Assembly: GCA_026026165.1 (NCBI GenBank)
Contig: JAPEUD010000016.1
Location: forward strand, 310,001-374,000
Source: Sarea resinae
Lineage: Eukaryota
Length of the DNA stretch: 64,000 bases
Reading direction: 5' to 3'
Shown one piece after another: positions 5,755 through 10,162 of this stretch; position 1 is the stretch's first letter; every line of letters begins with the position of its first letter. The position numbers were made by a program, and so were the translations under genes. Below the pieces are notes generated by a model. The model saw only the letters and a program-made list of their open reading frames with translations, was not told the DNA's origin and searched no databases.

Positions 5755-5848
5755 GGTCTTATGGCGCAATTGGCTAGCGCGTCCGGCTGTTAAGTTCTTA
5801 AGAACCTAGCGTACCGGGAGGTTGGAAGTTCGAGCCTTCCTAGGACCG
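5755..5848 (+). tRNA. tRNA-Asn(GTT) with a 20-nt intron (5793-5812)
   Basis: Acceptor stem GGTCTTA/TAGGACC, A-box TGGCGCAATTGG, anticodon stem TCCGG/CCGGG around CT-GTT-A, B-box GTTCGAGCC and a downstream T5 run. Confidence 0.95.
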
Positions 5849-6230: not shown

Positions 6231-6324
6231 CGGTCCTAGGAAGGCTCGAACTTCCAACCTCCCGGTGCGCTAGGTTCTCAAGAACTTAACAGCCGGACGC
6301 GCTAGCCAATTGCGCCATAAGACC
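6231..6324 (-). tRNA. tRNA-Asn(GTT) with a 20-nt intron (about 6267-6286); second, inverted copy
   Basis: Reverse complement of 5755-5848 apart from two intron substitutions; T-runs follow on the minus strand. Confidence 0.95.
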
Positions 6325-6839: not shown

Positions 6840-7572
6840 TCATTCCTGCGGCCCGTGGTTATACTTGTCGGTTGCTGACTTAAAAAGTTCCTGTTGCTGC
6901 CTCAAAAGTTCCTCCTCGGACAGCCCGCTCTGCTCCATTTTTGACTGCTTCTTCTCCCTTGTCTGTAACGCAAAACATGCATCAGTATCAATCAGTATGA
7001 ATGATGCAATGAACATATGATAGTGCCTACCTTCTGCTGCTCTCGATGGTCGTTTGCGACAGCCAAAACTTCCTGGACGTAATCCTCAAACCCCAGCTCC
7101 TCGAGTGCTTTGGTGACGTGTTCGCATGCGATAGTCTTCTTTGCTTCTTTCTCGGCCAGATCGTTCGCTTCAGAGGAGATTAAAGTGATGAACTCGACGC
7201 AGCATTCGATGAGGAGGTCTCGCGCATCTTTCGCAAATGTGAGACCTGATGATGACGGGAGGATTTCGGTTATGATTTTTTGGACAGTTGCTGCTCCAGA
7301 TTAGACATGCGGTGTAAAAGCGTCACTTTAGATCGGGCAAGCAGGGTATGGAAGATGACTCGACGCTGTGGGAACTTACCCTTTGGTAAAGACAGATCCT
7401 CGTTGCCTAGAGTATCGATAGTTAGCCTTGACTACGCAGGCGCATCAGCCTGCTATGGGACCTCGAAGAGTTCAATGCCAAGGCGAGATGAGCAGTTTAT
7501 CTTCTTGTGAATGGTCTGAAGCAGGGATCCAGCAAGATTGCCGTACATACCTCCAAATTCACGGTCTGACAT
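6840..7572 (-). CDS. NCB2: Negative cofactor 2 beta subunit (Dr1/Ncb2, histone fold); 4 exons
   Basis: Spliced translation MSDREFG-GNEDLSLPK-ATVQKIITEILP...FAKDARDLLIECCVEFITLISSEANDLAEKEAKKTIACEHVTKALEELGF...TREKKQSKMEQSGLSEEELLRQQQELF; GT-AG introns. Absent from the ORF track. Confidence 0.93.
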
Positions 7573-7950
7573 TGTGGTGATAAAGTGGCTAGCGACGTCG
7601 GGAGGGTCCCAGGCCTCCAATGTGTACTGCGAAATAAACCGTCAAGGACAGTAAACTGGGGGATTCAAGTGAGAGGGATTGGGGCAGCAACGGAGCGCAG
7701 TCGCTTTCCTTTATGCTGCGCTTCAATTATTTCTTGATTCATACTGTATGTCAAAGCCCAGGCCAAGGTGGATGCGGAAGAAGCCGAGGCGAGCCGCAGT
7801 AGCGTGTCTCTCTACCGAAAACTTCATTTCATTCAAGTCTCGAATTCTTTTCCTCCGACTCCTTCTTCCAAACATCAACAACAATGTAAGTTCATCAGTC
7901 TCTCCCATCACCTCAAGCTTCTGCTTCGTTATTTGCCTTTTCCCCAACAT

Positions 7951-8047
7951 TCGATGATGAACATTCGTGTCGCCCCTAACAGACCATTGAGCCTTGTGCT
8001 CTCGTGGTGACCAACACTGTCCTAGCCAAACGGACTATCTGAACCGA
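7951..8047 (+). ncRNA. Box C/D snoRNA 1 (snR60/U80-like guide for LSU Gm908)
   Basis: C box ATGATGA 7954-7960, guide TCGCCCCTA 7970-7978 before D' CAGA 7980-7983, C' GTGGTGA 8004-8010, D box CTGA 8039-8042. The guide is antisense to conserved LSU UAGGGGCGA. Confidence 0.75.
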
Positions 8048-8286
8048 TCCTCTCAATCATTCATCTTTAGCCATGCGGACATCAGATTGAATTTGGCTAA
8101 CGTGGCTTCTCAATATATAGGGCAGCATGTCTTGACGAAGTATCTTGATGAGACACTATTCTAGCTACATGGTTCATTGTGATGGCTATAACATCCCTTG
8201 GGTTACTTATGAGGAGATGATTTTTCCTGTCGCTAAGTAGGTATGTGGACTTTCCCCTAACACCTCGAAAGTTCTTTTGTACACTT

Positions 8287-8368
8287 TGTATGATGAGCAC
8301 TCTTTTTAAGTACTATCAAATGCTGAAAAACTCATGTTGAGCATTTACTGGTTCGATTACCTGATACA
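8287..8368 (+). ncRNA. Box C/D snoRNA 2 (two guides: SSU AUUUGAUAGUAC and LSU UAAUCGAACCA)
   Basis: Terminal stem TGTA/TACA, C box ATGATGA 8290-8296, guide GTACTATCAAAT 8310-8321 before D' CTGA 8323-8326, C' ATGTTGA 8334-8340, guide TGGTTCGATTA 8349-8359 before D box CTGA 8361-8364. Confidence 0.88.
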
Positions 8369-8665
8369 TTGTCACCATCTTCCATCTGCTCGCTTTTTCC
8401 TTTCTTGGATAACAAGCTGACTTATGTGAAGTTGTAGAGGACTAATCACCCACGACTGCTTTCGTCTTGCATCGATCTCACGCCAATCTTTCTTCAAACA
8501 TGTGCTAAGATCGGCTAAGATCCCGCTGTGACTTGGATGACTGGGCTATCCAGTATACACGGTATATGCTTCACTAATGTTATTCAAGTACTATCTCTAT
8601 CAAGAATCCTCTACCCATTCGGTATGTATATGCCAATTTTTTCAATCAATCATTCTGTTACCCTT

Positions 8666-8758
8666 GGCTTATGATGTAACAAACTCCATGCTAATGCTGA
8701 TGACGTTTTGAACGTCAGATGCTGAAAAATCAAGACTTTTCATCTTTCAACTGAAGCC
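8666..8758 (+). ncRNA. Box C/D snoRNA 3 (snR53-like SSU Am796 guide plus an LSU GAAAGAUGAAAAG guide)
   Basis: Terminal stem GGCT/AGCC, C box ATGATGT 8671-8677, guide TCCATGCTAAT 8685-8695 before D' CTGA 8697-8700, hairpin TGACGTT/AACGTCA, C' ATGCTGA 8719-8725, guide CTTTTCATCTTTC 8736-8748 before D box CTGA 8751-8754. Confidence 0.88.
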
Positions 8759-8880
8759 CCATTCCTCGTCTTTGCTCTTTCAAGCCAGTGCCTGAAAATA
8801 TGCTGACGATAGTCTTTCAGCTTAATGATTCATGGATGCCTTGATGATGCAAGGAGGTTGAAACTGTCAAAGCTTATCAA

Positions 8881-10162
8881 TTATCCTGATATGCAGCCAG
8901 TTCTTTATCATTCCAACTATATATATTAGCTTTGATACAGAAAATGACAATTTACATACTTGAAATATTGTCCACTGAGTTCTCGGGGTCCGTCAAGTGC
9001 CAATTTTGCCTGCTAGGATTAGCTTCGGCGCCACTCAGTCCGTTGGTCTGTCAAGAGATACCATTACATGACCAGGCTGTTCCGGCTTCAAGAGCCCGCC
9101 ATTTTTCTTCAAGTTCAAGAACTTCTCGGCATCCTTGGGACCCATGTTTTTGGAATGGATGTCTCTCAATTCAGTCTGCATTTGTGTGTCCACGATGCCA
9201 GGCCGGATAGAAATAGTGGTAACATTGGGCTCTTCAGTCCCCAACGTCCGGCCCAGATGATTCAAGGCTGCTTTGGAAGAGCCATAGGAACCCCAGCCCT
9301 GGTAAGAGGAGAAGGCGGCTCCTGATGAGGTGAAGATGATTCGACCATGAGATTCTCGGAGAGCTGGTAATGCTGCTTTCACCTATTGTGCCGTCTGTCA
9401 GAATGATATCTGCCAATCCAGAACATGGAGCTGCTGAAAATCCCAAACGGTCATATCCCGCGCCTACAGTGGCGGGCGCGATAGCGGTCATTCCGCATGA
9501 CCAGGTAACGTGAAGGATGGGACACGCAGGCTACTTCTGCACAGGCTTCTTGGCCATCTGCAGTGCATGTACCAATGCAAGTCCCAAACCTTCTCTAGGA
9601 TTTGGGGGGCGGCTGGAGACTCACGAAGGCCAGGGCGCCAAAGAAGTTGATATCGAACGCCTTTCTCCACTGCTCGACGTCACAATCGGCCACTTTCGTG
9701 ACGGGCTCCAAGACACCGTGGTTGACTATGAGGCCATCTAGCTTGCCCCAGGTCTCGAGTGCGAGGTGAACGGCCTGGTCGCCGATCGAGAAGTCGGTCA
9801 GGTCCCCTGCGATGACCTTGACCTGGCCTGGATACTGCGAGGCGAGCTGGTCGAGGGCCGCTTTGCTGCGGGCGAGGACGACCAAGTTGGTGGATTGCGG
9901 GGCGCGCAGGAGATAGTGGGCGACGGCGAGGCCGATGCCTGGGACGCGAGGTATATCAAATGGTCAGATCAAGTCAGGTCGGATCAATTACTCTTTCCAG
10001 ATTGATATGGATGGGGATCAAAAGGAAGTAAAGGCAGCATTGGGTGCGGGAGTGCGGCGACGAAGCGGCATGCTGGGCATTTGCGGGCATCAGAGCGAGG
10101 CAGGTGGGGAATTGAGTGTTACCTCTGGACGCGCCAGTCAGGATGACGGTCTTTGGTGGCAT
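8881..10162 (-). CDS. Short-chain dehydrogenase/reductase (sepiapterin/benzil reductase-like, YIR035C/IRC24 type); about 5 exons
   Basis: MPPKTVILTGASR|GIG (TGxxxGIG), LIVNHG, TSSGAA, catalytic YGSSK and IRPGIVDTQMQ; last exon WNDKELAAYQD*. Confidence 0.88.

Follow-up and report, generated by a model that had tools for sequence, protein, structure and literature searches.

Box C/D small nucleolar ribonucleoproteins (snoRNPs), whose core proteins are fibrillarin/Nop1, Nop56, Nop58, and Snu13, are assembled co-transcriptionally on box C/D small nucleolar RNAs (snoRNAs), and fibrillarin methylates the nucleotide that is paired to the fifth guide position. Five polycistronic snoRNA units are listed for budding yeast in the portion of a bioRxiv preprint available to us, one of which, snR67-snR53, is expressed as an unspliced polycistron; unspliced transcripts are also the source of the clusters in S. 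cerevisiae and species closely related to it (Luo et al.). Five of the six box C/D clusters of Neurospora are conserved with yeast, and the hosts are UHG-like, with one snoRNA per intron as verified by reverse transcription PCR, open reading frames (ORFs) of only 159–267 bp (“like gas5”), and a spacing to the splice sites that matters for snoRNA processing (Liu et al., 2009). Three other clusters are intronic throughout the Euascomycetes, in spliced non-coding hosts that are themselves poorly conserved (Luo et al.). The families concerned here, snR67 and snR53, correspond to CD_26 and CD_11, both widespread in fungi, in the part of the survey by Canzler et al. (2018) that we could consult.

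We describe a gene of this kind in a 64,000-nt stretch of DNA from Sarea resinae (GenBank assembly GCA_026026165.1, contig JAPEUD010000016.1, positions 310,001–374,000 of the forward strand; hereafter the window, whose own numbering is used throughout). An earlier reading of the bare sequence, referred to below as the original prediction, had placed three intron-encoded box C/D snoRNAs (units U1, U2, and U3, in introns 1, 2, and 3) within a non-coding host in this region. We consider it very likely that the plus strand from ∼7800 to at least 8916 is a spliced, non-coding gene that hosts snoRNAs in the manner of UHG and GAS5. From the family matches, taken together with the yeast polycistron and the Neurospora and Euascomycete hosts, we read it as the form that the snR67-snR53 unit takes in Pezizomycotina, with an extra snoRNA in the middle.

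The gene resembles the S. cerevisiae snR67-snR53 polycistron in that the same two families follow one another in the same 5′-to-3′ order on one transcript and the 18S A796-type guide is kept. Unlike the yeast unit, the gene in the window is a spliced host that places each snoRNA in a separate intron, with U2 between the other two. In its single snoRNA per intron, canonical splice signals, and short ORFs only, it is like the Neurospora clusters (Liu et al., 2009), although U2 is without a counterpart in the Neurospora set. Vertebrate UHG and GAS5, to which Liu et al. and Luo et al. compared their hosts, are likewise spliced and of little coding potential, and each of their introns carries a single box C/D snoRNA, but they are not related in sequence to the gene in the window. 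The survey of Canzler et al. (2018) proceeds family by family and, in the part consulted, contains no description of this host gene. The architecture of the gene is already in print, as are two of its three snoRNAs, and since both the yeast polycistron and the UHG-like hosts of Neurospora have been published, we regard the locus as a new example of a documented gene type rather than a new type. The suggestion in the original prediction that its combination of guides might be undescribed is accordingly mostly wrong, U1 and U3 being members of known families that form a yeast polycistron, with U2 as the possible exception.

Results

Splicing of the Host Transcript

Contigs from a wood-decay metatranscriptome, the only RNA run found to contain part of this stretch, were aligned to positions 7400–9300. 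A 311-nt RNA contig spans exons 2 and 3 and omits 191 nt with GT..AG ends (junction 8240|8432), and a second junction, 8621|8821 (8620/8621 to 8820/8821), omits 199 nt, again with GT..AG ends and with 29 nt on its shorter side. The junction-bearing contigs are 97%–99% identical to the window; as they differ from it at a few positions, their source is a closely related organism or another strain. The junctions that had been named as a check are thus present in RNA for two of the three proposed plus-strand introns, whereas intron 1 stands as a prediction. The proposed coordinates were exact for intron 3; intron 2 ends at 8431 rather than 8437 and is 191 nt long. For the 3′ splice site of intron 2 there are two AG dinucleotides with an offset of 6 nt (8430–8431 and 8436–8437), the first of which is taken by the RNA contig; given the alternative 3′ splice sites of a Neurospora snoRNA host (Liu et al., 2009), the second could be a minor site.

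Each intron contains one box C/D unit with the C..D′..C′..D order that had been foreseen; the branch A follows the last base of the D box by 58 nt (U1), 56 nt (U2), and 52 nt (U3), in place of the 50–55 nt given originally. The gap between the two flanking minus-strand protein genes has no credible ORF, as had been noted: its stop-to-stop frames are short, and the longest ORF that starts with ATG in the spliced product encodes 34 amino acids. With two junctions, no long ORF, and conserved snoRNA cores (see below), the proposal of a single non-coding spliced transcript carrying one snoRNA per intron is supported, in keeping with the hosts of filamentous fungi described by Liu et al. and Luo et al.

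Guides and Their Predicted Targets

Guides were scored on ribosomal DNA (rDNA) fetched from the metagenome with an ITS4-complement primer, which returned 110 mixed eukaryotic loci and no match in viral contigs. The ribosomal RNA (rRNA) genes were delimited by Rfam in two of these loci (L023 and L029), and target nucleotides were read in the D/D′+5 register. Locus L029 (1717–9118) carries a group I intron in its 18S gene (Rfam Intron_gpI, 79.7 bits), and its large-subunit (LSU) gene measures 4341 nt against a model of 3401 positions, so that further insertions are probable. For 1500 pseudo-guides drawn at random from the window, at least 11 Watson-Crick pairs were reached by 2.3%, at least 12 by 1.0%, and at least 13 by 0.27%. 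Four guide positions of the three units reach 11, 12, 12, and 13 Watson-Crick pairs in the +5 register; four long duplexes in six guide positions are far beyond chance. The original count of five guide positions in six antisense to rRNA can be upheld on this stand-in rDNA only, with four of them at 11–13 bp.

Family membership was assessed against Rfam and against the 55 cloned or predicted C/D snoRNAs of Neurospora (Additional file 1 of Liu et al., 2009). Below the Rfam thresholds, the matches agree with the Neurospora comparison in pointing to snR67 for U1 and to snR53 for U3.

The closest Neurospora relative of U3 is CD11 (alignment score 34), with which it has the blocks TCCATGCTA and CTTTTCATCTTTC in common; these include both guides, that is, the dual 18S/U6 guide at D′ and the guide to 26S A356. 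The D′ guide forms 12 bp with CATTAGCATGGA in 18S, targeting A794 of L023 (yeast A796, Neurospora A793), and the D guide forms 13 bp with GAAAGATGAAAAG in 25S, targeting A362 of L029 (Neurospora A356/359). A second target of the D′ guide is probably A47 of U6, the pairing being judged against the Neurospora U6 string printed by Liu et al. only. The fit to CD_11 of Canzler et al. (2018) extends, in the part consulted, to 18S-796, U6, and a Pezizomycotina-wide 25S site (Neurospora 359), the last of these guides being absent from yeast snR53 (25S A, Neurospora 356). The C box ATGATGT departs once from the RUGAUGA consensus, and the 4-bp terminal stem is also present in the Rfam structure line. 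Against the Rfam model snoR53Y, U3 reaches 25.9 bits (E = 0.044) and so stays under the gathering score, which is 43 (snR53 families RF00338 and RF01279).

The closest Neurospora relative of U1 is CD26 (alignment score 35), which shares with it ATTCGTGTCGCCCCTA (16 of 16 nt) and AGCCAAACG (9 of 9 nt). Within the D′ antisense block, TGTCGCCCC is the same as in the Rfam snR67 consensus, where the CCAAAC of the second block is found as well; the overall match to snR67 (RF01177) reaches 19.1 bits (E = 0.46), below the gathering score of 55. There is no clean terminal stem, only an offset 3-bp match. Two targets come into consideration for the D′ guide on the stand-in rDNA: TAGGGGCGA, a 9-bp duplex over guide positions 2–10 at the 25S site of the yeast G908 type, and GGGGCGGCAC, a 10-bp duplex with one G:U pair over positions 4–13 at the G2619-type site of yeast snR67, the latter found in three of the four long LSU loci. 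Longer D′ duplexes allowing one mismatch gave single-locus, G:U-rich matches only. The D guide of yeast snR67 (25S U2724) is absent in U1, and by the +5 rule the D-box guide of U1 has no consistent duplex of at least 9 bp with the stand-in rRNA; it is the one guide position that the original prediction had not counted as antisense to rRNA.

In place of this D guide, U1 carries an element complementary to the rRNA next to the G2619-type site. The 8-nt core AGCCAAAC is complementary over 8 bp to GTTTGGCT, which lies immediately 5′ of GGGGCGGCAC in three of the four loci that reach this part of 25S; when G:U pairs are allowed, the complementarity grows to 15 bp (8017–8031) and then overlaps the D′ target. 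In the part of van Nues et al. (2011) available to us, conserved extra-pairing elements are described beside methylation sites, in many cases within the second guide region of snoRNAs that have a single guide, and the U1 element is like them in being a conserved stretch of the second region that pairs directly beside a methylation duplex; snR67 is absent from those of their yeast snoRNA lists that we examined, and the case for U1 is made from sequence. The element looks like an accessory pairing that would aid methylation at the G2619-type site outside the +5 rule, and because it fits this type of pairing we tentatively favor the G2619-type target for U1. CD_26 likewise has a D′ guide directed at a 25S G in the portion of Canzler et al. 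(2018) consulted, where the G908-type site is the target predicted for three Pezizomycotina classes.

For U2, the D′ guide forms 13 bp, one of them G:U, with TATTTGATAGTAC in 18S (target U, position 121 of the small-subunit rRNA of L023), and the D guide forms 11 bp with TAATCGAACCA in 25S (target U, 14 nt 3′ of the G of the first U1 D′ option, the G908 equivalent). Among the 55 Neurospora snoRNAs U2 has no convincing match, its top alignment score being 24 compared with 35 for U1 and 34 for U3. Its best Rfam match is snR61 (19.5 bits, E = 4), an identity that we rejected since only the boxes are aligned and the guides differ. Identity with snR40, whose target we take to be U898, was rejected as well: U898 lies 10 nt 5′ of G908, and the U2 target 14 nt 3′ of it. 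In the portions of the yeast modification table covered, there is no 2′-O-methylation between Am100 and Cm414, where the 18S target falls, nor from Gm908 to Ψ1124, where the 25S target falls, and both targets are also missing from the Neurospora table (Liu et al., 2009). No RiboMeth-seq study of filamentous fungi turned up in a literature search. U2, along with its two predicted targets, could therefore be undescribed, as judged from the Neurospora list, Rfam, the accessible parts of Canzler et al., and a literature search without result; U2 may already be contained in the family tables of Canzler et al. or among A. fumigatus sequences, neither of which was part of the comparison.

Conservation in Other Organisms

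DNA runs of two more distant organisms (B and C), which belong to the study that produced the source assembly, were aligned to the region at a cut-off of 80% identity. Both align only over 7965–8042, 8308–8366, and 8667–8757, which are the cores of the three snoRNAs, and their flanks are unlike those of the window; immediately upstream of the cores, the C boxes can be recognized in the letters left unaligned. No alignment of at least 80% identity was obtained in either organism for the host exons or for the flanking protein-coding exons in the compared stretch. The snoRNA cores are thus more conserved than the sequence around them. A single 296-nt contig of organism B carries both U2 and U3, 160 nt apart, from which we conclude that the linkage between them has been conserved.

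At least two further U3-like RNAs and one U2-like RNA from other organisms occur in the metatranscriptome. Among the differences listed for the contigs of other organisms, with contig ends left out, all fall in the spacers of U1 (7995–8016) and U3 (8701–8732), downstream of the D′ box and upstream of the 3′ antisense element. In organism B, short contigs with snoRNA cores have a word depth of ∼380–430, compared with 20 for a 1765-nt contig that bears a second U3-like copy; this contrast, together with the additional U2- and U3-like RNAs, points to several copies or several organisms.

Feature Coordinates and Genomic Surroundings

Table 1. Exons, Introns, and snoRNA Elements of the Host Gene (Window Coordinates)
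Feature	Position	Strand	Signals or evidence
Exon 1, putative	7800–7885	+	Predicted from the 5′ splice site; start approximate
Intron 1, predicted (235 nt)	7886–8120	+	GTAAGT 7886; CTAAC 8097–8101 (branch A 8100); AG 8119–8120
snoRNA U1, snR67/Neurospora CD26 family	7951–8047	+	Boxes, family match, core conservation
U1 boxes	C ATGATGA 7954–7960; D′ CAGA 7980–7983; C′ TGGTGA 8005–8010; D CTGA 8039–8042	+	
U1 D′ guide	7964–7979	+	
U1 putative accessory antisense element	8017–8031	+	Core AGCCAAAC at 8024–8031
Exon 2 (120 nt)	8121–8240	+	RNA contig over 8116–8238/8240, joined to 8432
Intron 2 (191 nt)	8241–8431	+	GTATGT 8241; CTGAC 8417–8421 (branch A 8420); AG 8430–8431; RNA junction
snoRNA U2	8287–8368	+	Boxes, guides, 4-bp terminal stem 8287–8290/8365–8368
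U2 boxes	C ATGATGA 8290–8296; D′ 8323–8326; C′ TGTTGA 8335–8340; D CTGA 8361–8364	+	
U2 guides	D′ 8310–8322; D 8349–8359	+	
Exon 3 (190 nt)	8432–8621	+	RNA contig over 8430/8432–8621
Intron 3 (199 nt)	8622–8820	+	GTATGT 8622; CTGAC 8803–8807 (branch A 8806); AG 8819–8820; RNA junction
snoRNA U3, snR53/Neurospora CD11 family	8666–8758	+	Boxes, guides, terminal stem 8666–8669/8755–8758
U3 boxes	C ATGATGT 8671–8677; D′ 8697–8700; degenerate C′ near 8717–8725; D CTGA 8751–8754	+	
U3 guides	D′ 8685–8696; D 8736–8748	+	
U3 internal hairpin	8702–8716	+	
Exon 4	8821–8916	+	RNA contig over 8820–8916; extends to at least 8916

The host gene is flanked on its 5′ side by a divergent minus-strand histone-fold gene (ATG at 7572; Pfam match CBFD_NFYB_HMF), which is tentatively named NC2-beta/NCB2 by similarity, and on its 3′ side by a minus-strand short-chain dehydrogenase gene (start at 9038; match adh_short). 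In our own reading, the introns of the neighboring genes measure 89, 144, and 242 nt, which leaves little of the contrast originally drawn between the snoRNA introns and introns of 50–90 nt. The longest of them, in the dehydrogenase gene (9383–9624, minus strand; GTGAGT .. CTGAC .. AG), is similar in length to the snoRNA introns; it shows no box C/D motifs by eye and no Rfam match even at E values up to 5. Regarding promoters, no motif common to snoRNA and ribosomal protein genes was reported for N. crassa or A. fumigatus (Diao et al., 2014).

Further upstream, two tRNA genes (5755–5848, plus strand; 6231–6324, minus strand) have the same Rfam score (51.3 bits) and the same aligned sequence, each with a 21-nt insertion (intron) in the anticodon loop, and form an inverted pair ∼380 nt apart.

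Discussion

The preferred reading, in which the three snoRNAs are released from a spliced non-coding host, implies the established pathway. One RNA polymerase II precursor would be made from the plus strand, and its splicing would yield three lariats, the introns of which, after debranching, would be trimmed back by exonucleases to the box C/D snoRNP; the exons would have no product of their own. The D′ guide of U1 would then direct methylation of a 25S G at either the G2619-type or the G908-type site, the guides of U2 that of an 18S U near position 121 and of a 25S U 14 nt 3′ of the G908 equivalent, and those of U3 that of the 18S A796 equivalent, probably U6 A47, and a 25S A (Neurospora 356).

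Several points weigh against this reading or parts of it. With respect to the transcript, RNA coverage is limited to 8116–8916, so that exon 1, the junction of intron 1, the start, and the 3′ end lie outside it, and intron 1, the start site, and a promoter common with the divergent gene are for that reason predictions; there is no RNA contig over 7400–8115 or past 8916, and such coverage holes carry no evidential weight. Contigs of an environmental metatranscriptome show neither the mature 80–97-nt RNAs nor their ends, levels, or strand. Two unspliced contigs (8592–8763 and 8734–8849) cross both ends of intron 3, for which DNA carry-over is a conceivable source. Rfam, a check named in the original prediction, matched no family in the region at gathering thresholds; below them, the matches to the snR67 and snoR53Y families are weak. 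The guides were scored on environmental rDNA and not on the organism's own rRNA and small nuclear RNAs (snRNAs), and the exact target strings occur in only a part of the loci that span them (8 of 17 for U2 D′, 20 of 43 for U2 D, 8 of 19 for U3 D′, and 49 of 67 for U3 D), which we attribute to the taxonomic mixture of the loci. The apparent confinement of variation to the U1 and U3 spacers is suggestive only, the difference lists being incomplete.

Other such points concern U1 and its family. Its D′ duplexes are short (9–10 bp), and 9 Watson-Crick pairs are reached by 17.8% of random pseudo-guides. Liu et al. (2009) give U2 snRNA G183 as the target of CD26, unlike the 25S target favored here, and in their table snR67 is linked to CD49 and not to CD26. 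CD26 and CD11 are both intronic and on chromosome I (Liu et al., 2009), but for the Neurospora cluster that matches snR67-snR53 we could not confirm the members, nor a single host common to CD26 and CD11. Dothideomycetes, Eurotiomycetes, and Leotiomycetes are reported to lack the G2619-type target, through loss, in the part of the survey by Canzler et al. (2018) available to us; U1 of the window still pairs at that site, with 10 bp and 8 adjacent bp.

Of the alternatives, the one that survives best, and that we nevertheless consider unlikely, is that the snoRNAs are released as in yeast, either by cleavage of an unspliced precursor by an RNase III of the Rnt1 type or from promoters of their own, splicing being incidental. 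Yeast snR67-snR53 and the other S. cerevisiae clusters provide the precedent, the unspliced contigs over intron 3 would fit such a precursor, and in one of the Neurospora clusters, individual snoRNAs were noted to have putative promoters upstream (Liu et al., 2009). However, unspliced contigs are expected in any case from precursor RNA or DNA carry-over, two junctions are observed in spliced form, every unit sits in a canonical intron 52–58 nt from the branch A, and the Euascomycete clusters surveyed by Luo et al. are all intronic.

It is less probable still, and in our view very improbable, that the spliced RNA is itself functional, as the mRNA of a micropeptide or as a regulatory long non-coding RNA, with the snoRNAs as passengers. 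The product does contain ORFs of 34, 30, and 29 amino acids, and splicing of intron 1 would join the AT at the end of exon 1 (7884–7885) to the first base of exon 2 (G, 8121) in a junction-spanning ATG. This ATG opens a 9-codon ORF only, no ORF exceeds 34 amino acids, and the exons cannot be aligned in organisms B and C, whereas the snoRNA cores can; poor conservation and little coding potential are also what Liu et al. and Luo et al. found for the hosts of fungal clusters. Chance occurrence of ATGATGA and CTGA strings and rRNA-like words in long introns or intergenic DNA, which the shortness of CTGA and TGATGA and the failure to reach any Rfam gathering score might suggest, can hardly be credited given four guides of 11–13 bp in register (against 2.3% of random pseudo-guides), guide blocks that are the same as in cloned Neurospora snoRNAs, and conservation confined to the cores, both in organisms B and C and among the other fungi of the RNA run.

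Spliced release from a non-coding host thus being the reading we retain, a more far-reaching proposal can be attached to it only tentatively: that U2 represents an uncatalogued Pezizomycotina family, placed between snR67 and snR53 and directing two methylations outside the yeast and Neurospora maps, and that U1 makes an accessory pairing beside the G2619-type target. We think this combination possible but rather doubtful. In principle the locus adds little that is new, intronic snoRNA clusters in non-coding hosts having been documented in filamentous fungi. It is a gene that protein-centered pipelines leave blank, and as it carries three ribosome-modification guides it should be annotated as one non-coding RNA host and three snoRNAs. 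The double guide of U2 predicts two rRNA methylation sites outside the yeast and Neurospora lists, and the 8-nt element of U1 offers a testable account both of a conserved “orphan” guide and of the conflicting target assignments of CD26. If that account is true, methylation of the snR67/U31 type would be retained, by means of a split duplex of two segments, in lineages that are reported to have lost it.

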